64,000 nucleotides of DNA from a virus. Within the stretch, counting starts at the first letter, position 1. Every line of letters begins with the position of its first letter. The position numbers and the translations under genes are program-made. The stretch covers positions 10,534-74,533 of the IMG/VR virus record IMGVR_UViG_3300003322_001323; one strand, written 5' to 3'. Shown here piece after piece: positions 3,059 through 64,000 of the stretch. The notes under the pieces are model-generated. The model saw only the letters and a list, made by a program, of their open reading frames with translations. It was not told the DNA's origin and ran no database searches.

Positions 3059-3093
3059 GACTACACCACGGCCCTGAACAAATGTAAACCCCC
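3059..3093 (-). promoter_or_regulatory. Putative phage early promoter, copy A
   Basis: 30/35 identical to 21081-21115; minus strand TTTACA-17 bp-TGTAGT; intergenic. Confidence 0.7.
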
Positions 3094-4341: not shown

Positions 4342-4761
4342 TTAAGGTGTCCAATGCTCCGGATCGGGAGCGCCGTCCATGCGCCGGCCCGTGTTAAACT
4401 CCACCTGTACGGCGCGATCGTCCCATAGTTCCGTCATGGCGAAGTCCTTGGTGGCCGTAATGGCGAGCACGCGGCCGATGTGCTGCTTGCACCAGCGCTC
4501 TATGGGCTTGCAGGCTAGGTCCAGCTCGCCGGGCGTACCCACGCGCGCGGTGAAGATGCGCACCTCCCGGCCCTCCTTAAGCCAGTTCTTTACGCGACGA
4601 ATCATGGGCATGATGGGCGGTCCGATATGATTATATCCGAGCCAGATGCCGTCCCAATGCGCGAGCGTTCCATCCAGGTCCACACCAATCCACCCTCTGG
4701 ATTTTGGCTTGGTGGCTCGGGTCTTGGAATGCTTGGCCGTATCAAACCGCTTGTTGGACAT
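4342..4761 (-). CDS. HAD-family phosphatase
   Basis: IGVDLDGTL, IFTAR, K, ELWDDRA motifs. Confidence 0.85.
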   Translation of the reverse strand: MSNKRFDTAKHSKTRATKPKSRGWIGVDLDGTLAHWDGIWLGYNHIGPPIMPMIRRVKNWLKEGREVRIFTARVGTPGELDLACKPIERWCKQHIGRVLAITATKDFAMTELWDDRAVQVEFNTGRRMDGAPDPEHWTP

Positions 4762-5347
4762 TCTGTTCCTTCATGATGGCAAAATAAACTTCGGCCGTGG
4801 CGCGGCAGTCCACTACCGCGCTGTGAGCGCCCTCGAAGCCGTCCGGATGCACGAAGTATTTGTAGGCTTCCTGCAGGTTCGGGGGCTTGTACTTGTCGAA
4901 GCCGGCCGCGCGCATGCGCTCGGTGGGCGGCAGCTTCATGATGGGCGTGGCGAGTTCCATGCAGCAGGTGATCTTGTCGGGACCTGGGTGCGAAGGCTGC
5001 CGGCCATAGCGATGGAAGGCGGTCCGCAGCACGGTCTCGTCGAACTTCTGGTTGAAGCCCACTACCTCGCTGGCGCGCGCTCGCAGCTGGGCAAAGACGC
5101 TCAGCGCCGTGGCCATCGGCACGCCGCACTCGCGCGCAATCTCGGTGGTGATGCCGTGAACGCGCGCCGCGCCCTCCGGTATGGTCCAGCCGTTGGGCTG
5201 GATTATGAGGTCGGCGGAGCAGACCTCCTTGCCCTCATCGGTGACGAGCAGGCAGCCCAGCTGCACCAGGTGCGGCTGCGTCGGGTGCCCCGGCGGCAGC
5301 GAGCTCTGCACTAGGCCGGTGGTTTCGGTGTCGTATACAAATATCAT
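4742..5347 (-). CDS. DEDDh 3'-5' exonuclease (DnaQ-like)
   Basis: YDTETTG, VHGI, NQKFD, AHSAVVDC. Confidence 0.92.
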   Translation of the reverse strand: MIFVYDTETTGLVQSSLPPGHPTQPHLVQLGCLLVTDEGKEVCSADLIIQPNGWTIPEGAARVHGITTEIARECGVPMATALSVFAQLRARASEVVGFNQKFDETVLRTAFHRYGRQPSHPGPDKITCCMELATPIMKLPPTERMRAAGFDKYKPPNLQEAYKYFVHPDGFEGAHSAVVDCRATAEVYFAIMKEQNVQQAV

Positions 5348-5362
5348 GGTGAATTATCTCCG

Positions 5363-5623
5363 CTATTTCGCGTGAATTGCGGGCAGGAGGACACACGCCA
5401 CCAGGTAGACGATGCCGACCCAATAAAGAAAATCGACGATGCGGACCCCCGCGTGCTCGGCCCATTTAACTCGCGGGTGCTGTCCAACCGCGCGAGAGCA
5501 TATTCCATCGTGGTCGGGATGGAGCTGGCAAAAGTCTGAATGTTCTCTCATTGAGATTCCTCCTAACAGTTTGGTGAACTCGCGGCTTTGGGTCAGATCG
5601 ACGGTGTTCAATTTGCGCTCCAT
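5363..5623 (-). CDS. Hypothetical protein with C-terminal transmembrane segment
   Basis: ORF filling the gap; FLYWVGIVYLVACVLL. Confidence 0.55.
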   Translation of the reverse strand: MERKLNTVDLTQSREFTKLLGGISMREHSDFCQLHPDHDGICSRAVGQHPRVKWAEHAGVRIVDFLYWVGIVYLVACVLLPAIHAK

Positions 5624-6082
5624 TTATCCGGCCAGGCGCCGCAGCCAGCGCCGCTTTGGCTCTGGCCGCACCGCCTTGGCGCGAGGGCGTGACGGGCGGG
5701 ACCATTCCCCGCCGTCCGTCAAACCCATGTCCATAAATCCTGCGGCCCGCAGGCTGGTGCCGGGTTCCTCCGGCAAGGTGTATGTCCAGGCTTCCCGATA
5801 CCCGAGTGCCTTTGCAGCTCGGCACAGGGCGCCATAGAGACAGGAGCAGGCATTCTCCGCGCCCTCGGTCGCCACCCTCGAAATCACGATGCGCCCGCTG
5901 TCCTGCCAAACCCGCGAAGGGTTGCCGGCGACGGCCACGCCCAGCACCGCGCCGTCATCACCCAGGACGCGAGCTGCAAAAAGACCCCCTTGCAGCTCGG
6001 GCAGGTGCCGGTGCCAAGCGCGCACGATGGCTCGCGCGGCTTTCACCGTGCAGGGCGCAATCGTGAGGCGGGACTGGCTCAA
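5624..6082 (-). CDS. XF1762-like protein (GNAT/Mom-like fold suspected)
   Basis: WHRH, VAVAGNP, SRVAT..ENACSCLYGA..RAAKALGY, TYTL.EEPGTSLRAAG. Confidence 0.8.
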   Translation of the reverse strand: MSQSRLTIAPCTVKAARAIVRAWHRHLPELQGGLFAARVLGDDGAVLGVAVAGNPSRVWQDSGRIVISRVATEGAENACSCLYGALCRAAKALGYREAWTYTLPEEPGTSLRAAGFMDMGLTDGGEWSRPSRPRAKAVRPEPKRRWLRRLAG

Positions 6083-6094
6083 GCTATGGGCTCC

Positions 6095-6268
6095 CTAGCC
6101 TTGCTCGGCTGCATAGGTGGAAGCGGTATCCGCCACCGCCTGCCACATGATCTTGCGAAATTCTGGCGCCCAGCCGTTGCGGTCCATTTCCCGTTGAAGG
6201 GGGCGCAGCAGGTCGCTCGCCTTGAAGGCGATCCGCTCGGCCAAGATTTGTGCCTTATCGTCGCTCAA
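6095..6268 (-). CDS. Hypothetical protein
   Basis: GGGAGG RBS before TTG at 6268. Confidence 0.6.
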   Translation of the reverse strand: MSDDKAQILAERIAFKASDLLRPLQREMDRNGWAPEFRKIMWQAVADTASTYAAEQG

Positions 6269-6281
6269 TGAGCCCTCCCTT

Positions 6282-6422
6282 TCAGACGTGGATTTCAGAT
6301 TTGCGAAATGACAGGCCAACCGGCCCCAGGCACAGCGTCACTTCCCACTCGGAAACGATGACGCCGACAACCCACCAGTGCAGGTCAAAGTGCGGCTGAA
6401 ATCTCCATTGCGTGATCCACAT
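6282..6422 (-). CDS. Small hydrophobic protein (46 aa), not in ORF track
   Basis: GAGGAG RBS supplied by the repeat; MWITQWRFQPHFDLHWWVVGVIV... Confidence 0.55.
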   Translation of the reverse strand: MWITQWRFQPHFDLHWWVVGVIVSEWEVTLCLGPVGLSFRKSEIHV

Positions 6423-6430
6423 GGTTTTGG

Positions 6431-6525
6431 CTCCTCAAAAGTTGGCGGGTGAGCAACAAGCTACGAGGACTTCCACCCCGTGCCCGGTTCTAGACCTTCG
6501 CCTGCGCTCACCCATAAAATCGCTC
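6431..6525. repeat. 95-bp perfect direct repeat, copy 1
   Basis: Identical to 6788-6882. Confidence 0.97.
6443..6513 (-). ncRNA. Putative structured RNA (three-way junction ending GCCA), copy 1
   Basis: GGGUGAGC/GCUCACCC and GCAGGC/GCUUGU stems enclosing two hairpins. Confidence 0.5.
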
Positions 6526-6527
6526 GA

Positions 6528-6779
6528 TTAGTTGGCGGGACGAATTGATGGCTGGTTGCCGCATTCGAACGCTTGGTTGCAGGAAATTTCATGGCCGTAC
6601 ATGCCGTCGCTCAGAAGAATTTGAGGCGACCCCATAGCGCAATAGTAGCAACGCTCGGCTTTGAGCTTGCACTCCGGGCATGTGCTGGACCGCTTCTGGC
6701 CAAGGTAGTGATTGCCGCAGCGGCCACACTCGCATTCATACTGATCTTCTTTGGCGAAATCTGGTATCAGGTTGGTCAC
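6528..6779 (-). CDS. Cys-rich zinc-binding small protein
   Basis: CECGRCG, CPEC, CYYC; lies between the two repeats. Confidence 0.7.
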   Translation of the reverse strand: MTNLIPDFAKEDQYECECGRCGNHYLGQKRSSTCPECKLKAERCYYCAMGSPQILLSDGMYGHEISCNQAFECGNQPSIRPAN

Positions 6780-6787
6780 AGCAAGCC

Positions 6788-6882
6788 CTCCTCAAAAGTT
6801 GGCGGGTGAGCAACAAGCTACGAGGACTTCCACCCCGTGCCCGGTTCTAGACCTTCGCCTGCGCTCACCCATAAAATCGCTC
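6788..6882. repeat. 95-bp perfect direct repeat, copy 2
   Basis: Identical to 6431-6525. Confidence 0.97.
6800..6870 (-). ncRNA. Putative structured RNA, copy 2
   Basis: Identical to 6443-6513. Confidence 0.5.
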
Positions 6883-6885
6883 CTT

Positions 6886-7107
6886 TTAATCGTCCAATGC
6901 AGCGCCGTGCGGCTGCAAAAACCAATCTGCAAAACCGCTGACGATCCCGTAGAGCGTAAAGAGGGGCCAGCAGGTCGATACCGCGAAAATCTTCCAGCGT
7001 GGCACCTTGGTCATGCGCGAACCGCCGTCAGTGATCCAGATAACAAGATTGATGCCGCCGCCGATGTAGGCCACGAGAGCGATCCAGAACCAAGGGTCTT
7101 GTGTCAT
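6886..7107 (-). CDS. Small membrane protein
   Basis: AAGGAG RBS, two hydrophobic segments. Confidence 0.7.
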   Translation of the reverse strand: MTQDPWFWIALVAYIGGGINLVIWITDGGSRMTKVPRWKIFAVSTCWPLFTLYGIVSGFADWFLQPHGAALDD

Positions 7108-7121
7108 GTTGAGGCTCCTTT

Positions 7122-7268
7122 TTAATCCTTATCCTGCCGCGCCCAGCTCTCGCGCTGGCGCTTAATCATGGCGGCTTTTTTCGCCGAAGTCATCTTGGCT
7201 ACTCGTTTCTTGGCCGCCGCCAATAGCTTTTCCAGGTCAGGCCGAATCTTCGCTTTTGACTTCCTCAC
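7122..7268 (-). CDS. Small basic protein (48 aa), not in ORF track
   Basis: GTG overlaps polymerase TGA; ...AMIKRQRESWARQDKD. Confidence 0.55.
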   Translation of the reverse strand: MRKSKAKIRPDLEKLLAAAKKRVAKMTSAKKAAMIKRQRESWARQDKD

Positions 7269-9328
7269 GAGCAGGCTCCCCAATCCGCGCCGCGATCGCT
7301 CTCCACCAGCACCGGCACCTTGAGCTGGATGGCATTCTCCATGATCCGCGTCAGCTCCCGGCCGGCCTCGTCCGCGGCCTTGGTCTTGGCGATGGAGCTG
7401 CCGAGCTCGTCGTGGACGGTAACCAGGAACGGCCCAATTACGTCCAGGATGCCGGCCTCGTGCGCGTCCACCATGGATTTTTTCGTCAGGTCCGCGGAGG
7501 AGCCCTGCATCTTTCGGTTCATTGCCATGTAGGTGTTAACCCGCTCCACCTGGCGCACGCTGTAGCCGCGGTATTTGCGAAAGCCGCGCTGCGCCTCCTC
7601 GCTCGTGATCCAGTAATGCACGGCCTCGGCGCGATCGCGAAACACGGCTGCCGGGATTTTCCGCTGATAGCGCACCGGCCCCCAGAAAGGAAAGCGCTGC
7701 TTGCGGCCCAGGATCGTGGTGACGTAGCCATTGCGCTGCGCCCAGTAGGCGCAGGCATCGAAGGTATCCTTGGTGAAGGGCAGCTTCTCCTCGTACTCGC
7801 GCACAAACTCCTCCGCCTCCTCCACCGAGCATCCGAAGGTGAGCGCCAGCTTGGGCGGCTGGGCGCCATAGCCCTTGGCGAAGTTGGTGTTCTTGACGCG
7901 CTTGCGCTTCTTCGAATCCTCCGGGTCCACGCCCAGCATCTGCGCCGTGAGCTTGTGGTAGTCGGTCTTGGGGTCGTTGCGGTAGGCGTCGCGCGCCTCC
8001 TCCGCGCCGCGACCCACGGCAAAGTGCGCGGTAAAGCGGTACTCGATCTGGCTGAAATCGTCGCGCTGCCACTCCTCCCCCTGCTCGGGTTCGAAAACGC
8101 CGCGCACCAGCGGCGCGATATTTTGATCCTCCTGCCAGTCGGACTCGCGCGCCGGAATGAATTGCATGTTGGGATGCGAGCCGGCAAACCGGCTGAGCGA
8201 GCCGCCCTCGTCGTCCTTGCCCTGCTTGAAGGTCGGATGCACCCGGCCTTTATGCAGGTGGCCTAGAATCTGACCGTCAATGAAGGTCGTTACCAGCGTA
8301 TTGAACTTGCGGCCGTTCAAGAGCACGCGAACCAGGGGGTCGTTTTGATACTGCTCCATGAAGGGCTTGGTTATGGAGGGAGCGTTGGTTTTCTTGGTGC
8401 GCGGTACCTCAATACCCTTTTCTTCCAGCGCCCGATAGAAGCTGAGGGGCTCGGTGAGCTCGGCCTTTGGACCCGCCAGCCGCTTTAGCTCCTTGGTCCA
8501 GCGCGCCACCTCCTTGGTGAAGCGGGCGCGCAGCTTCATAACCTTGGCCTCGTTGACCGGTACGCCGCGCTGGCGCATCTTCACCAGGATCGGGATGAGC
8601 TTGCGCTCCAGCTCGTAGACCGGGAGCTGCTCGTCTGCTTCTAGCAGCGCCAGCTGCTTTTCCAGAATTTGCAGCGGCCGTAGCGCGTCCACTTGCGCGT
8701 AGGGTCCCACCACGCCGGCGGGCATGCGATGAATGTTGCGTTTAACGGCGTCATCGCTGGCGCCGAATCCCAGCGCGCTGGCCGCCTCGCGCAGCAGGTC
8801 CTCGTCCTTGCCGAGCCCCAGATGGGTCTGCGCCACGGCCTCCAGCGAATAGGAATCGCGCCACTCGTCCAGCAAAGGTTCAGCCACCAGCACGTCGTGG
8901 AATACCTTTACGTGGGTAAACTCCACGCCCCAGCAGGTGGAGAGGCCATCCAGGTCGTAGCCCAGCGACGCGCCGACGAGCTCGCCCCGATACTCGCTGG
9001 CAAGCTTCTTCATGAAGCGCTGCACCAGGCCACGGTCCAGGTTGCCGCCGCCCTCGTGGTCGGTGGGCAGGTACCAGGCGCGCCCATCGTCGGTCGCCAG
9101 CGACACGCCTACGGGCTTGGCACCCCAGCGAAAGCCCGGCCCCTTCTCCTGCAGCTCCGGGTCGTGGGTCTCGGTGTCGATCCCCAGGCGCTTGACGCCG
9201 GCCAGGTTGATGGTGTTGAGGTCCGGCGCCACCCACTTGACCTCCGGCTGGAACAGGGCCATCTGGCCCATCTCCGCGGCCTGGAGGTGGCGGCGCGCGC
9301 CGGCGCTCATGCTATTACCGCGGGCCAT
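7265..9328 (-). CDS. polA: Family A DNA polymerase with 3'-5' exonuclease domain (start uncertain)
   Basis: IDTET exo I; DFSQIEYR motif A; KRVKNTNFAKGYG motif B; TVHDEL motif C. Confidence 0.96.
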   Translation of the reverse strand: MARGNSMSAGARRHLQAAEMGQMALFQPEVKWVAPDLNTINLAGVKRLGIDTETHDPELQEKGPGFRWGAKPVGVSLATDDGRAWYLPTDHEGGGNLDRGLVQRFMKKLASEYRGELVGASLGYDLDGLSTCWGVEFTHVKVFHDVLVAEPLLDEWRDSYSLEAVAQTHLGLGKDEDLLREAASALGFGASDDAVKRNIHRMPAGVVGPYAQVDALRPLQILEKQLALLEADEQLPVYELERKLIPILVKMRQRGVPVNEAKVMKLRARFTKEVARWTKELKRLAGPKAELTEPLSFYRALEEKGIEVPRTKKTNAPSITKPFMEQYQNDPLVRVLLNGRKFNTLVTTFIDGQILGHLHKGRVHPTFKQGKDDEGGSLSRFAGSHPNMQFIPARESDWQEDQNIAPLVRGVFEPEQGEEWQRDDFSQIEYRFTAHFAVGRGAEEARDAYRNDPKTDYHKLTAQMLGVDPEDSKKRKRVKNTNFAKGYGAQPPKLALTFGCSVEEAEEFVREYEEKLPFTKDTFDACAYWAQRNGYVTTILGRKQRFPFWGPVRYQRKIPAAVFRDRAEAVHYWITSEEAQRGFRKYRGYSVRQVERVNTYMAMNRKMQGSSADLTKKSMVDAHEAGILDVIGPFLVTVHDELGSSIAKTKAADEAGRELTRIMENAIQLKVPVLVESDRGADWGACS

Positions 9329-9575
9329 TGTGATGATACCGGCAGCCCGGTTCTCCGAAATTGTGATAACGATTTTCACCGCAAGAGGCATCGCAGTTGC
9401 AGCGCTCCGGCAATGTCCTAGAAACCTTGCTAATATAATCGCGCAAACTGCGTACCAGGTTGAAAGCCTTGCGGTGGAGCTGACGCGAGTGCCGATCGCG
9501 CGAGGCCTCGTCTACGAACTTGCGGGCGCAAAACTCGCAGGGCACGCGGCGAATGGATTTGGTGGGCTTAGGCAT
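9315..9575 (-). CDS. C2H2 zinc-finger protein
   Basis: CEFC-x12-H-x4-H with conserved Phe; second Cys/His cluster. Confidence 0.65.
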   Translation of the reverse strand: MPKPTKSIRRVPCEFCARKFVDEASRDRHSRQLHRKAFNLVRSLRDYISKVSRTLPERCNCDASCGENRYHNFGEPGCRYHHNGPR

Positions 9576-14820: not shown

Positions 14821-14865
14821 TTAATTCTCCCAGCTCTGCTTCGAGGCTAAACCCTAACCTCTCGG

Positions 14866-14881
14866 GTAAACAAAAGTAAAC
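14866..14881 (-). promoter_or_regulatory. Tandem GTAAAC box (GTAAA-N5-GTAAA)
   Basis: Intergenic direct repeat with 10-bp period; same hexamer at four other intergenic sites. Confidence 0.55.
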
Positions 14882-26719: not shown

Positions 26720-26750
26720 AAACCCAGCCCATTGTTTTTATTATCAGCAA

Positions 26751-26785
26751 TGGGGTCACGGTCTCGACAAAGCCCCGTGACCCCA
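26751..26785. terminator. 11-bp stem hairpin between SSB-like and primase genes
   Basis: TGGGGTCACGG/CCGTGACCCCA; no strong U tract. Confidence 0.45.
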
Positions 26786-26803
26786 CTCTTACTCAACTAA
26801 AGG

Positions 26804-27763: not shown

Positions 27764-27822
27764 ACTAACTTTCCTTCTTCAACTGCCCGAACTTTCTAGC
27801 GGCAACGGGCTAACCGCGCTTC

Positions 27823-27855
27823 TGTCTGTACGCGTCAAATTGATGCGTACAGACA
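27823..27855. promoter_or_regulatory. 33-bp near-perfect palindrome, operator-like
   Basis: TGTCTGTACGCGTCAA-A-TTGATGCGTACAGACA, one mismatch. Confidence 0.6.
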
Positions 27856-27859
27856 AACC

Positions 27860-30239: not shown

Positions 30240-31888
30240 TTCCCCGAATGCTCGTTGAGGATCAGGTCGGAGAGCTTGCGGCGCTCGCGGTGGCTGCGCA
30301 CGATGTCCTCGTCCTTGGTGTCCTGGGCGATTAAATCGACAATGCCGGTGGCTACAGTCCGAAGGCCGGTTTGAGCCCGGACTTCGGACTGTAGACGCTG
30401 ATTGAGGCCAAACTCGGAGGAGTAGTACATCATCCAGCGCGCCGCCGAGACGTTGACGGCGCGGCCGGCCGAGCGGGTCTTGGCGACGAAGGTGTCAAAC
30501 TCGCCCGCCTGGAAGCCCGCCTTGTTGCGATGCTTGGTTTCGTCGTCCACCTTGCCGTCGTAGCGGCAGGGCCGGCGCCCGAGGTCGCGGCAGAGCTGGA
30601 GCACGTCGGCTATGTCCTGGTCGAAGCGGCACCAGATGATAGCCGGATCGGGAGAGACCCGAAACTCAGCGGCGAGCCCGAGCAGCTTAGGGTTGCGATC
30701 AAACGGAACAAGGCGCTGTAGGGGGACGTCGCTTTCAAGGACGCCAAGGCCGTCACACGCCGCGCAGTCATCGCCCTCTCCCAGGCATCGCTCGCAAACG
30801 GTCGCGGATTTGGAACTGGGCCAGAAGCCGCTAGTGAGCTGCTGCAGGCGCAGATAGCGCGTGAGTACGTTGGCCACGCTGACCTTGCCGAGAGCTTCCA
30901 GCTCCAGCTCGTAGTCAACGGACAGCTTTTCGTAATGCGCGCGCTGCTCATCGGTCAACTCCACGTAGCGCTTCTGATAGATGGGCTCGGGTACGTCCTT
31001 GAAGACGTCCTTGAAGAGAACCCGATAGGTATGCGGCGCGATGATCCGCTGCATTTTATCCAGGTTCTTGTAAATGGGCCGGCCATTCTCGTCCTTCTTG
31101 GTCCGGCTGAAGGCCTTGGCGTCGCGGCCATACTTGACGACCTCCTGCTCGCAGTATTTGGCGCGAAAGACGGTGGCGTTGGTGCCGAAATAGTGGTCGC
31201 CGAGAAAGCGATACTGGGTAAAGACCGGCACGGGCTCGCCGCCGTTGGGCGTACCGTCCAAGACGCGCTTCATTACCGCGTGCTTGCTCATGTAGTAGAG
31301 CGACTTGGTGAGCGCGGCATCGGGGGTCTGCATCAGGAGCGTACCCTCGTCGCCCACCAGCAGGACCTTGCGCTTCTTGAGGAACCTGGTCAGCATGAAC
31401 TCGGTGAAGGCGTCGGTGCGGGCGCTCTCGCCGTTGATGCAGATGATGGAAAGCCCGTCAAAGGCGAGGAGGTTGGCGAGCTCCTCCGCATAGGACAGGT
31501 TCCGGGCCTTGCGCCGGCCGTTGGGCAGGCGCACCTTCTTGTTGAAGCCCGCCTTGGTGTTGTCCCACAGCAGCACGCGCTTGGGGATGAAGTTCGGCAG
31601 CATGCCTGCGTTGATCTCGTCCACCCAGTTGCGCGGCGCGCCCGAGGGCATGGCCACGATCACCAGGGCGTCAATTTTCTTTTGGAGAAAGTTGTAGGCG
31701 GCCGTGTCCAGGATTACCTGGGTCTTGCCGGTGCGCTGCTCCATGGAGAGGTAGAAGCCGCCGCGATCGTGGCTGCGGGCAAAGCCCTCCACCTGATGAT
31801 CCCAGCGCGTGCGGCCGGGCAAGGGCGTGGCGGCAATGTAGTCGCCGGGGCTCCAGCCCGCGGCCTCGCTCAAATTCGGCACCGACAA
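30230..31888 (-). CDS. SNF2-like SF2 helicase, divergent
   Basis: MEQRTGKT, VGDE, LDGTP, LRLQQLTSG, IIWCRF, YDG, QSEVRA. Confidence 0.88.
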   Translation of the reverse strand: MSVPNLSEAAGWSPGDYIAATPLPGRTRWDHQVEGFARSHDRGGFYLSMEQRTGKTQVILDTAAYNFLQKKIDALVIVAMPSGAPRNWVDEINAGMLPNFIPKRVLLWDNTKAGFNKKVRLPNGRRKARNLSYAEELANLLAFDGLSIICINGESARTDAFTEFMLTRFLKKRKVLLVGDEGTLLMQTPDAALTKSLYYMSKHAVMKRVLDGTPNGGEPVPVFTQYRFLGDHYFGTNATVFRAKYCEQEVVKYGRDAKAFSRTKKDENGRPIYKNLDKMQRIIAPHTYRVLFKDVFKDVPEPIYQKRYVELTDEQRAHYEKLSVDYELELEALGKVSVANVLTRYLRLQQLTSGFWPSSKSATVCERCLGEGDDCAACDGLGVLESDVPLQRLVPFDRNPKLLGLAAEFRVSPDPAIIWCRFDQDIADVLQLCRDLGRRPCRYDGKVDDETKHRNKAGFQAGEFDTFVAKTRSAGRAVNVSAARWMMYYSSEFGLNQRLQSEVRAQTGLRTVATGIVDLIAQDTKDEDIVRSHRERRKLSDLILNEHSGKWI

Positions 31889-32017
31889 ATCTCCAAGCTC
31901 TGCGATCGGTTCAAATAAATATGTAGCGGGCGAGAAGCGCGATTGGCGCTACTCGTTCCATTAGCTTTACGCGGTGATAGGCCCCGGCTCCTCGCCCAGA
32001 ATCCGACGCTATAAAAA

Positions 32018-32023
32018 GTAAAC
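32018..32023 (-). promoter_or_regulatory. GTAAAC box upstream of replication operon
   Basis: AAAAGTAAAC, as at 14872-14881 and 32711-32720. Confidence 0.45.
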
Positions 32024-32066
32024 AATTGGTGTCCATAGCTGAGCGAAGTTATTTTTTGACGGATTG

Positions 32067-32600: not shown

Positions 32601-32698
32601 AGTAGATAAATCCTTTCAAGGGGTTACAGGGGGTTAGTCGTAATTCGCCTCAATTCGCGCTCCTGGTCTATATAAGCGCGGTGGGACATTACGAGAGC

Positions 32699-32742
32699 AT
32701 CCTAATCTAAAAAAGTAAACAGCAAAGTTTTTAGGTTAGGAT
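32699..32742. promoter_or_regulatory. 15-bp inverted repeat enclosing a GTAAAC box in the divergent control region
   Basis: ATCCTAATCTAAAAA/TTTTTAGGTTAGGAT, one mismatch. Confidence 0.6.
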
Positions 32743-32883
32743 AGCTTCGAAATGCATCTATACGTGTACCCGCGCGCGAACCGCGGTGGGTGGACCCAAT
32801 AGGTCCTGGGTGGGCGAGCGAGGGAGTTACTCAGTTTTTACGATTTGCGAGCCAGGATGCGGCGGGTTTGTCGAAGGCGGCGC

Positions 32884-33390
32884 ATGCGGCGATGGTACGT
32901 GGCGAGAACGCAGGCGGGGCTTGGCTCCATCGCGGAGCGAGAGCTTCAGCGTGCGTACGGCGATCGGCCGGCGTTCAAAACGCTGATGCCATTGGACGAC
33001 AAGGGCCGCTCGGTCTTTGGTCCGTACATCTTCATCGAAATTGATCTTGACACGGACTATTGGGAGCCGATCAACTCGGTGCGCGGCGTGATGCGCCTGT
33101 TGCCCATTGGTCTGCCATCCCCCCTGCCACTTCGCGATGATTTCATGCGAAGCTTGCAGAAGCGCCTGAACGATGGCGATTTCAACGAGAAGGTCGCGGT
33201 TGAGCTGGTTTACGCCTATTCGGCCCAGGAGCCGGCGCTGGTTACCTCGGGGCCTTGGGAGGGTCACGTTGGCAATTTTGTGCGACGACGTAAGGGATTT
33301 ATAAACCTTTCGCTGTTATTGTTCAACCGACCCTTCGAAATCCCAATTCCGGCCCACCAGGTCCGACCCGCGTCGCCAAAAGCAGCTTGA
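32884..33390 (+). CDS. NusG-family paralog (NGN+KOW), probable late antiterminator
   Basis: WYVART, FGPYIFI, INSVRGV, VTSGPWEGHVG. Confidence 0.88.
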   Translation: MRRWYVARTQAGLGSIAERELQRAYGDRPAFKTLMPLDDKGRSVFGPYIFIEIDLDTDYWEPINSVRGVMRLLPIGLPSPLPLRDDFMRSLQKRLNDGDFNEKVAVELVYAYSAQEPALVTSGPWEGHVGNFVRRRKGFINLSLLLFNRPFEIPIPAHQVRPASPKAA

Positions 33391-47074: not shown

Positions 47075-47332
47075 ATGGATTTGGACGCACAGCTGAAGTC
47101 GTTGAATGCTCGCGTGACGGTTCTGGAGGGGCTGGTGCAGCTCTTGCTGGGCGTGCCCGGCCTGCGCGAGGAGGCGGAGCGCGCCGCGCTGGAGCGCGCG
47201 GAGGCGGAGAAGCGCGCGCCGCAGGTGGAGCAGGGGGGTAAGGTCGAGGAGGTCGCTCCGGTCGAGGAGGTCGCTCCGGTCGAGGAGGTCGCTCCGGTCG
47301 AGGACCCCGCCAACCCGAGCGCGCAAGCCTAA
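47075..47332 (+). CDS. Hypothetical protein with VEEVAP repeats
   Basis: AGGAG RBS. Confidence 0.65.
   Translation: MDLDAQLKSLNARVTVLEGLVQLLLGVPGLREEAERAALERAEAEKRAPQVEQGGKVEEVAPVEEVAPVEEVAPVEDPANPSAQA
47242..47304 (+). repeat. 18-bp tandem repeat x3.5
   Basis: GGTCGAGGAGGTCGCTCC perfect units. Confidence 0.95.
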
Positions 47333-60492: not shown

Positions 60493-61740
60493 ATGAAAAA
60501 TTATTTTGGGTTTTTAACATTGCTGATTGGCCTGGCGTTCGCTAATTCAGCGCTCGCGCAGAGCTCGCCGCATCTATATAATGGCCAGCAGCCAAGCAAC
60601 GTGCAGTGGAACTCCTATTTCGCGGCCAAGCAGGACTATCCGGTGCCACCGTTCACCACCACGCAGTCGGGAAGCGTACCCATTTCGCCGGGAGGTACCA
60701 CCGCCTTCTTGCGCGCGGATGGAACCTGGGCGGTACCTGGCGCCGTCATTCTGCCGGGCGATCCGACGGCCACGATCGGCTCCACGCCGGTAAACGGGGT
60801 AGCGACCACCTACATGCGCAGCGACGCGGCGCCGAAGCTTCCGGCTGTTCTGCCCGCGCTGGATGGTTCGCAGCTTACGAATCTGACGATCAACAACCTA
60901 TCCGGCCTGGGTACGGGCGTGGCAACGGCGCTGACGCAAAACGTTTCGGGGACGGGCGCGATTTGCCTGGTTTCTGGAAGCGCCTGCTCGGGAACGCCCG
61001 GCGGGTCCAGCGGTCAGATGCAATGGAATAGCAGTGGCAGCTTTGCGGGAGTAAGTGGTTCCTCGTGCAACGCATCATTTTGCACGCTTACCGGCTACGT
61101 GCTCAGCAGCCCTTCCTTGGGTGGCAGTGTGGTATTTTCGGGCATCACGGGGTCCACACAGTGCCTGCAAGTTAATTCCTCCGGAATTGTATCCGGCACG
61201 GGCTCCGCTTGCGGTGGCGGTGGTGGAGTTACCACCACGGGTTCACCGGCGAATGGCAATTTGACGAAATTTTCCGGAGCATCTACCATTACCAATGGGG
61301 ACCTCTCCGGTGACTGCACGACCTCGGGCACCCTGGTGGTTACGTGCCCATCGCCGATTGCCAAGATCAACGTCAATAACAGCTGGACGGCCGCGCAGCG
61401 TGGCACGCCCGTTACGCTTTCGCTTTCCACGGCGACCGCTACACCAAACTTCGATACGGGACAGAATTTTTCTCTCACGCTTTCCAGCGCTTGCCCCTGC
61501 ACCTTTGCCAATCCATCCACCACGCCGGTGGCGGGACAAACTGGCGTTATTGTCATTATACAAGACGCCACGGGTGGCCGAACTATTGGAACCTGGGGCA
61601 GTAATTATATAACGCCTGGTGGGGTTTCAGTCGGTCTTGCCTTAAGCACTGCCGCCAATGCCAGAGATTATTTCAGCTACTACGTGGATGATTCCACGCA
61701 TATCGTGATCACGCCGGGAGCTCTAAATGCAATCCATTAA
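60493..61740 (+). CDS. Fibre-like protein with signal peptide and five Cys pairs
   Basis: Signal ending ALA-Q; QWNSYFAAKQD; FLRADGTW; IIQDATGGRT fibre-tip-like motif. Confidence 0.8.
   Translation: MKNYFGFLTLLIGLAFANSALAQSSPHLYNGQQPSNVQWNSYFAAKQDYPVPPFTTTQSGSVPISPGGTTAFLRADGTWAVPGAVILPGDPTATIGSTPVNGVATTYMRSDAAPKLPAVLPALDGSQLTNLTINNLSGLGTGVATALTQNVSGTGAICLVSGSACSGTPGGSSGQMQWNSSGSFAGVSGSSCNASFCTLTGYVLSSPSLGGSVVFSGITGSTQCLQVNSSGIVSGTGSACGGGGGVTTTGSPANGNLTKFSGASTITNGDLSGDCTTSGTLVVTCPSPIAKINVNNSWTAAQRGTPVTLSLSTATATPNFDTGQNFSLTLSSACPCTFANPSTTPVAGQTGVIVIIQDATGGRTIGTWGSNYITPGGVSVGLALSTAANARDYFSYYVDDSTHIVITPGALNAIH
60603..60644 (+). repeat. 42-bp perfect repeat shared by two fibre-like genes, copy 1
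   Basis: Identical to 63845-63886. Confidence 0.95.
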
Positions 61741-63722: not shown

Positions 63723-64000
63723 ATGGAAAATAACAAGTTCTTGACCCGTCTCGCCATCATTACCGCTGCCCTGCTGGCCTCGGCCGCGCCGGCCTGCTCG
63801 CAGTCCAATCCTAACCTGGTGTTCGGTCAGGTCCCCACGGCCGCGCAGTGGAACTCCTATTTCGCGGCCAAGCAGGACTATCCGGTTCCGGTATTCAGCG
63901 CCACGGTGAACGGCTCCGTGCCGGCGCCGGGTACCGCGGTCGGCAACTGCTTGAAGGACGACGCAACCTGGGGTTCCTGCGGCGGTGGCGGTGGCGGCTC
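63723..64000 (+). CDS. Fibre-like protein with signal peptide, paralog of 60493 gene (truncated by window)
   Basis: MENNKFLTRLAIITAALLASAAPACSQ...GQVPTAAQWNSYFAAKQDYPVP. Confidence 0.8.
   Translation, partial: MENNKFLTRLAIITAALLASAAPACSQSNPNLVFGQVPTAAQWNSYFAAKQDYPVPVFSATVNGSVPAPGTAVGNCLKDDATWGSCGGGGGG
63845..63886 (+). repeat. 42-bp perfect repeat, copy 2
   Basis: Identical to 60603-60644. Confidence 0.95.

Follow-up and report, generated by a model that had tools for sequence, protein, structure and literature searches.

In the replication operon of an uncultured, high-GC soil phage, a 95-nucleotide (nt) unit occurs in two identical copies on either side of a small, cysteine-rich (Cys-rich) orphan gene. 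The stretch analyzed here, referred to as the window, comprises 64,000 nt and corresponds to bases 10534-74533 of the IMG/VR virus record IMGVR_UViG_3300003322_001323, which has 74,533 base pairs (bp) and direct terminal repeats. The two copies are read here as the genuine product of a very recent event that duplicated one intercistronic unit. The favored origin, to which roughly even odds are assigned, is that the complete unit was duplicated as the Cys-rich gene entered by recombination at short translation-start motifs shared between the partners. No test supported a tRNA mimic in the interior of the unit, and it does not make a convincing protein gene either; its one robust structural feature is a stem of 13-14 bp.

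The copies lie at positions 6431-6525 (copy B) and 6788-6882 (copy A) of the window, are identical at 95 of 95 nt, and are spaced 357 nt apart. They constitute the longest perfect repeat of the window, and just these two copies exist in the window and in the whole record, where chance would predict no match. All genes around the repeat are encoded on the minus strand, and both edges of the unit are placed with respect to them. The 5' edge falls 3 nt past the TAA of a 73-amino-acid (aa) gene in copy A and 2 nt past the TAA of the Cys-rich gene in copy B. At the 3' edge, each copy closes with the Shine-Dalgarno (SD) sequence GAGGAG, which lies 8 nt ahead of the GTG of the Cys-rich gene in copy A (6793..6788) and 8 nt ahead of the ATG of a 46-aa gene in copy B (6436..6431). 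Both start codons agree with the N-termini of homologs. Both copies open with GAGCGATTTTATG on the coding strand, and the 95-nt unit spans exactly the distance from one translation-start signal to the next. A first-pass annotation of this DNA had already described two identical copies flanking the Cys-rich gene and a GAGGAG ribosome-binding site at the end of each; both observations stand.

The repeat lies between the genes for a family-A DNA polymerase and a 3'-5' exonuclease, an interval that is hyperplastic, or hypervariable, and wholly replaced in the nearest relative, L007. The two polymerases share 87% of their amino acids and 84% of their nucleotides, and the exonuclease gene is 80% identical in nucleotide sequence. 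Between them, the zone from the conserved 53-aa gene to the exonuclease gene (7113..5346 in the window, 8218..10011 in L007) has no nucleotide similarity. The six accessory proteins of the zone, together with the peptide of a mini open reading frame (mini-ORF) inside the unit, have no match in the corresponding interval of L007 and no significant match in other relatives. The motif at the 5' edge of the unit recurs in this setting. GAGCG(A/T)TT is found three times in L007, each time at a stop-to-start junction between small genes of the variable zone (at 8331, 8788 and 9381, in the form TA(A/G)-N-GAGCG(A/T)TT-N-ATG), and in the window phage this junction motif is confined to the 5' edges of copies A and B. 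The unit is thus bounded by a start signal of a recurrent type on its 5' side and by a Shine-Dalgarno sequence on its 3' side. Searches for further relatives led back to the same genome: other genes in the interval 4342 to 9391 (those for the polymerase, the exonuclease and proteins of 139 and 86 aa) led, through their clusters at 90% identity, only to the L007 record, and a search with the exonuclease cluster representative returned that record alone. A megablast search of positions 6000-9400 (3.4 kb, from the polymerase to a Mom-like gene) gave no match among GenBank phages, and therefore no close relative is deposited there.

The gene enclosed by the repeat differs in its distribution from its downstream neighbor. 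The Cys-rich gene has no close relative among approximately 5.8 billion protein clusters, no Pfam match at E<=0.1, and no relative in searches of viral contigs. A full HMMER search recovered remote homologs only and showed the protein to be a mosaic that combines two small Cys modules, each of which is carried without the other by further small proteins. Residues 3-40 hold a CxCxxC...CxxC module (PDFxKExQYECEC...), which many small proteins contain by itself, and residues from about 41 to 79 hold CxxCxMGxPQ...GHEISCNQAxECG, found by itself in others. The 46-aa gene, by comparison, is matched on two Logan contigs by homologs of about 91% identity (P0005 on 11,313 nt and P0007 on 65,850 nt). The 73-aa gene has a single homolog, 58% identical (P0004, on a 40,964-nt JGI contig). 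None of these three homologs was recovered from the viral and genome contigs in which they were sought.

An origin by recombination is favored because the repeat is perfect, present in two copies and unique in the genome, with edges 2-3 nt past stop codons and 8 nt before start codons; because the motif at its 5' edge marks three cassette junctions of L007, in which the zone is replaced; and because the flanked gene is an orphan, while the gene downstream has close homologs elsewhere. The orphan gene would have recombined into the polymerase-exonuclease hypervariable zone and, in doing so, duplicated the unit. Two routes can be envisaged. Two staggered crossovers or template switches may have taken place, one leaving the recipient at the Shine-Dalgarno sequence GAGGAG and the other re-entering it at the upstream start motif GAGCGATT. 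Alternatively, a circle bearing the gene and one unit could have integrated by a single crossover. Either route would produce the order unit-gene-unit, with identical copies whose edges fall on start signals. A simple tandem duplication is ruled out, as only 95 of the 357 nt recur. The 95-bp perfect homology would now make the Cys-rich gene deletable by homologous recombination.

Precedents for such events exist. Repeated intergenic units termed promoter-early stem-loops (PeSLs) are found in the T4-type phages RB49/phi1, PST and nt-1, where recombination between copies deletes, inserts or circularizes cassettes, and both exchange and mini-circle formation have been demonstrated experimentally (PMC2839356, PMC4122927). 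The reading of the repeat as a recombination scar draws on this demonstration. PeSLs and the unit described here are alike in being repeated intergenic units of a hyperplastic region that run from an upstream stop to the next Shine-Dalgarno sequence or start, contain a stem-loop and flank orphan genes, and unit-gene-unit is the product expected from inserting a PeSL-type circle. By analogy, the unit would work in a manner resembling a PeSL-bounded cassette, although it is no PeSL.

In the modular-exchange model, short conserved boundary or linker sequences lie at the gene junctions of lambdoid and other mosaic phages. The short shared gene-start sequences seen here (GAGCG(A/T)TT..ATG and the Shine-Dalgarno sequence) likewise coincide with exchange points. 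In contrast to such linkers, the exchange left a 95-nt duplication rather than a clean swap, and the motif is found in one relative only. The first-pass annotation had proposed that the repeat doubles as a recombination boundary for the gain and loss of small gene cassettes. From the layout of the sequence this is plausible: the zone is replaced, the enclosed gene is an orphan, and the edges lie on junction start motifs. Against it, no relative carries the unit, and gain or loss was not observed.

Several points weigh against the favored origin. The searches yielded no relative that carries just one copy or has the unit beside other genes, and both the event and its direction are what we infer. 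Further, the 10-mer CCCGCCAACT, which forms the last codons of the Cys-rich gene, recurs in the same frame in both copies (6440-6449 and 6797-6806) as the last codons of the mini-ORF. This in-frame identity between the unit and the 3' end of the Cys-rich gene is unexplained by an insertion model, although it is possibly due to chance, since 6% of shuffles give an equally good local match. A stable stem has no obvious reason to exist in a functionless spacer. Lastly, a good Shine-Dalgarno sequence (AAGGAG, at 7 nt) and an ATG at the start of copy A suggest that the 26-codon ORF could be translated.

If recombination at start motifs is the correct explanation, the arrangement provides a clean, dated snapshot of the entry of an accessory gene into a phage hypervariable zone. 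It would indicate that exchange at short shared translation-start motifs leaves behind a duplicated spacer able to delete the gene later. It would also carry the idea of repeat-bounded cassettes from T4-type phages to an unrelated high-GC soil phage, with units that have neither promoter nor terminator. As a single case without relatives, the observation is anecdotal, and no larger question is opened or settled by it unless the RNA is processed. The features of the unit and its surroundings are collected in Table 1.

Table 1. Positions of the duplicated unit, its internal features and the neighboring genes in the window, in the order of transcription.
Feature	Position	Strand	Remarks
Family-A DNA polymerase gene, 708 aa	9391..7265	minus	
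53-aa gene		minus	between the DNA polymerase gene and the 73-aa gene in the direction of transcription
73-aa gene, membrane-like	7107..6886	minus	upstream of copy A
Copy A of the 95-nt unit	6882..6788	minus	between the 73-aa gene and the Cys-rich gene
Start-signal motif GAGCGATT, then TTATG	6875..6882 (copy A), 6518-6525 (copy B)	minus	5' edge of the unit
26-codon mini-ORF, MGERRRRSRTGHGVEVLVACCSPANF*	6435..6515 (copy B), 6792-6872 (copy A)	minus	UGA overlaps the next Shine-Dalgarno sequence GAGGAG
71-nt core of the unit	6443..6513 (copy B), 6800-6870 (copy A)	minus	13-14-bp closing stem, 38-nt interior with ambiguous fold, 3' end GCCA
83-aa Cys-rich orphan gene, GTG start	6779..6528	minus	between the copies
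10-mer CCCGCCAACT	6530..6539	minus	last codons of the Cys-rich gene
Copy B of the 95-nt unit	6525..6431	minus	between the Cys-rich gene and the 46-aa gene
46-aa gene, ATG start	6422..6282	minus	downstream of copy B
Three further small genes, one Mom-like	extending to 5363	minus	
Mom-like DNA modification protein gene	5624-6082	minus	one of the three further small genes; phrog_1384, E = 8.6e-21; within the hypervariable zone
3'-5' exonuclease gene	5347..4742	minus	

Homologs of the unit itself were sought in several collections. An exact 30-mer had no match in IMG/VR. The pattern of the closing stem matched twice in that collection, both times inside unrelated coding sequence and attributable to chance. 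The two matches of a 20-mer in JGI metagenomes were also chance occurrences in coding sequence, and the 37 matches of an 18-mer among 185,579 species genomes of GTDB were all at chance identity outside the seed. Among GenBank phages, blastn returned only fragments of 24-31 nt in unrelated genes. A covariance model of the unit, run against five related whole phage records and 12 loci, found only the unit itself, and blastn-short and nhmmer found nothing in the related loci. That no homolog lies within reach of the exact-seed searches counts in part against the structured RNA put forward in the first-pass annotation.

Such an RNA is the alternative that survives best, albeit as an unlikely one. 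It would be a structured noncoding RNA or an RNA processing signal, the tRNA-like idea included, in which RNase P, RNase III or RNase E excises the 71-nt core from the polycistronic transcript or cleaves inside it. Such cutting would set the cistrons apart, and both copies would be retained because every junction depends on one. Its closing stem, GGGUGAGC/GCUCACCC with GCAGGC/GCUUGU, is robust, with a pair probability of 1.0 for 8 bp and of 0.94-0.97 for 5 more, and is followed by GCCA; the long closing stem and the 71-nt span of the first-pass annotation are therefore borne out. Only 0.47% of GC-matched 71-nt windows in this genome fold as well, placing the core within the top 0.5%. The interior is not coding-like, the site is intercistronic within a long operon, and strong hairpins occur in other intergenic gaps of the same phage. 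The overall stability is nonetheless moderate, with a z-score of -2.9 for the chosen 71 nt versus only -1.2 for the 95-nt unit. The two inner hairpins that the first-pass annotation had drawn have pair probabilities of 0.02 and 0.15 and are not part of the favored fold, and the structure containing them lies 1.9 kcal/mol above the minimum free energy (MFE). The absence of a homolog, and hence of covariation, in any collection or in the five related genomes speaks against such an RNA as well. So does the nearest relative, whose cassette junctions work without an element of this kind.

The more specific proposal of a tRNA mimic is not supported. With tRNA and tRNA-like RNAs, such as mascRNA-type mimics and viral tRNA-like structures, the core shares its length of about 71 nt and a G-C-rich terminal helix followed by G-CCA. 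The stable RNA species 1 and 2 of T4 belong to the same group of comparison systems. The likeness does not extend further. An 8-bp helix followed by G-CCA is present, but the helix runs 6 pairs further where a T arm is expected, giving a terminal helix of 8+6 bp instead of the 7 bp of tRNA, and CCA by itself is a 3-mer. D and anticodon arms are missing. The hairpin that might pass for a T arm forms with a pair probability of 15%, and its loop, UGGAAGU, lacks the UUC of the T-loop (UUCRANY). ARAGORN detected no tRNA in the window, nor any at a threshold of 80%. Lowering this threshold to 60% produced a 'tRNA-Leu(aag)' from the 5' edge of the unit in both copies together with two other calls in the same 700 nt, and the mitochondrial mode produced 15 calls; both results were treated as noise. 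In Rfam, no match reached the gathering thresholds. At E<=10, with 1 kb and then 106 nt as query, no tRNA, transfer-messenger RNA or tRNA-like family appeared, only noise matches to unrelated small RNA and long noncoding RNA families. The unit therefore contains one real and fairly unusual stem and, beyond a terminal helix and GCCA, has no tRNA features.

Other processed elements offer a looser comparison. The intercistronic RNase III sites of T7 (R0.3, R0.5, R1 and others) each consist of one irregular hairpin about two helical turns long (about 20 bp) and are conserved among relatives. Like them, the unit is a structured element that separates cistrons of a long phage transcript and exists in multiple copies. 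It differs in that its stem, of 13-14 bp, encloses an interior that is branched or ambiguous, and in lacking relatives. In the favored reading, the stem is most likely a passive intercistronic RNA hairpin, which may act as a decay barrier or possibly as a nuclease site; gaps elsewhere in the operon contain hairpins that are stronger still.

Very stable intergenic hairpins are also present on the minus strand at 19565-19646, 20349-20480, 26720-26803 and 27764-27859. The first of these has an MFE of -55 kcal/mol (z = -4.4). All four greatly exceed the stem of the unit in strength and may be terminators or processing sites.

Somewhat less probable than a structured RNA is a tiny coding gene, which we consider doubtful. 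Here the unit would specify an Arg-rich peptide of 26 aa, read from a Shine-Dalgarno sequence and start of its own; the gene would have been duplicated together with the next Shine-Dalgarno sequence, and its translation might be coupled to the downstream gene through the overlap of UGA with GAGGAG. Copy A has AAGGAG-N7-ATG, and the ATG occupies the exact position at which real L007 genes start after the same GAGCGATT motif. The 26 codons are open, the stop lies inside the next Shine-Dalgarno sequence, and the layout is as compact as that of the neighboring genes. In copy B, by contrast, only GAG is found upstream. The start codon of the mini-ORF abuts a 14-bp stem. Codon usage looks non-coding. 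The mini-ORF scores -0.84 bits/codon, compared with a mean of -0.81 for off-frame sequence and of +0.42 for in-frame windows, and no in-frame 25-codon window scores as low when 30 long ORFs are taken as genes. Its frame is not the best-scoring of the three, four of five Arg codons are AGG, AGA or CGA, and GC content is flat across codon positions (0.60/0.64/0.60). Every neighboring small gene, on the other hand, follows the order third, first, second codon position in GC content (GC3>GC1>GC2) and scores best in its own frame. The peptide had no tblastn match in GenBank phages or in the related loci, and is too short for searches of large protein databases.

Two further observations concern the frames at copy B. 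The TAA of the Cys-rich gene (6526-6530) is in frame with the ATG of the mini-ORF (6513-6515), such that read-through would add 31 residues. The frames of the Cys-rich gene and of the mini-ORF both end in P-A-N, encoded by the same 10-mer.

A PeSL-like regulatory cassette is improbable. Such a cassette would contain a promoter as well as a terminator or attenuator, drive each small gene from one of several copies, and act as a standing recombination hotspot. The overall layout of upstream stop, stem-loop and downstream Shine-Dalgarno sequence in a hyperplastic, orphan-rich region is the same, and GGTCTAG is common to the unit and to the -10-like part of a twin promoter-like motif of this phage. 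Against this reading, no sigma-70-like promoter and no terminator-like site occur on the coding strand of the unit; its stem is stable, but it has no adjacent U tract and received no terminator-like call. PeSLs exist in many copies shared with related phages, whereas the unit has only two, identical, and none in the five related genomes or the 12 loci. In addition, the hosts of PeSLs are T4-type phages, while the genome considered here, of 74.5 kb with direct terminal repeats, is not T4-like. The idea that the unit is itself a promoter was rejected, as it shares only GGTCTAG with the twin motif and lacks the GTTTAC -35-like element of the promoter-like gaps of this phage.

That twin motif, of 35 nt, reads GGGGGTTTACAwwTGTTCAGrGCCrTGGTsTAGTC and lies on the minus strand at 3059-3093 and 21081-21115, in two operon gaps longer than 100 nt. 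GTTTAC(T)TTT occurs in other gaps (14847-14881, 31883-32066 and 32601-32898), and together these sequences are probably promoters of a class proper to this phage. On the plus strand, opposite to the genes, each copy of the unit also contains TAGACC-N18-TAAAAT (6491-6520 and 6848-6877), a weak sigma-70-like match (9 of 12 positions) that is probably due to chance.

Still less credit is given to a portable 'punctuation' module, for which the chances are slim. In this case, the unit would consist of a start signal, a compact three-way RNA whose closing, acceptor-like helix ends in GCCA, and the Shine-Dalgarno sequence that follows. It would be cut by a host tRNA-processing enzyme or a double-strand RNase to separate cistrons, and be carried between cassettes, also supplying homology for the gain and loss of small genes.

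An assembly artefact, in which a strain mixture or a mis-resolved loop would have produced a false repeat or a false unit count, is likewise very improbable. The record comes from a metagenome at low depth, about 3-4x in Logan contigs, and the junction 6387-6436 is not covered by a Logan contig. Positions 6437-6823 are represented in a Logan contig from a root-metagenome run. This contig has 387 nt, equal to 357+30, as expected of the A-gene-A arrangement in a de Bruijn graph, and forms a closed loop of period 357, such that the graph alone leaves the copy number unfixed. Among the contig joints listed, none bypasses the gene; neither this nor the gap in cover at 6387-6436 weighs in either direction. 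Nevertheless, the Cys-rich gene joins the unit on both sides with 0 differences, and a linear genome then needs two copies. A second Logan contig spans the junction of copy A and the 73-aa gene. Depth is the same for the gene piece (3.2) as for its flanks (3.2-4.4), and the junction of copy B and the Cys-rich gene is present in a second sample. As the root-metagenome run may be the source sample of the record, its contigs support the arrangement without being independent proof.

Integron attC sites, including those of integrase-less clusters (CALINs), occur in virulent phages (PMC9892861), and they share with the unit the form of repeated, partly palindromic elements after promoterless small ORFs in an array; this reading was rejected because no RYYYAAC or GTTRRRY core is found on either strand in 6200-7200, AAC/GTT is not involved in the stem, and the tyrosine integrase family PF00589, optional in CALINs, was unmatched in the complete genome while positive controls matched. 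Elsewhere in the window, a 64-nt repeat of 88% identity lies between two late genes (60600-60663 and 63842-63905), and an 18-nt tandem repeat is located at 47224-47295.

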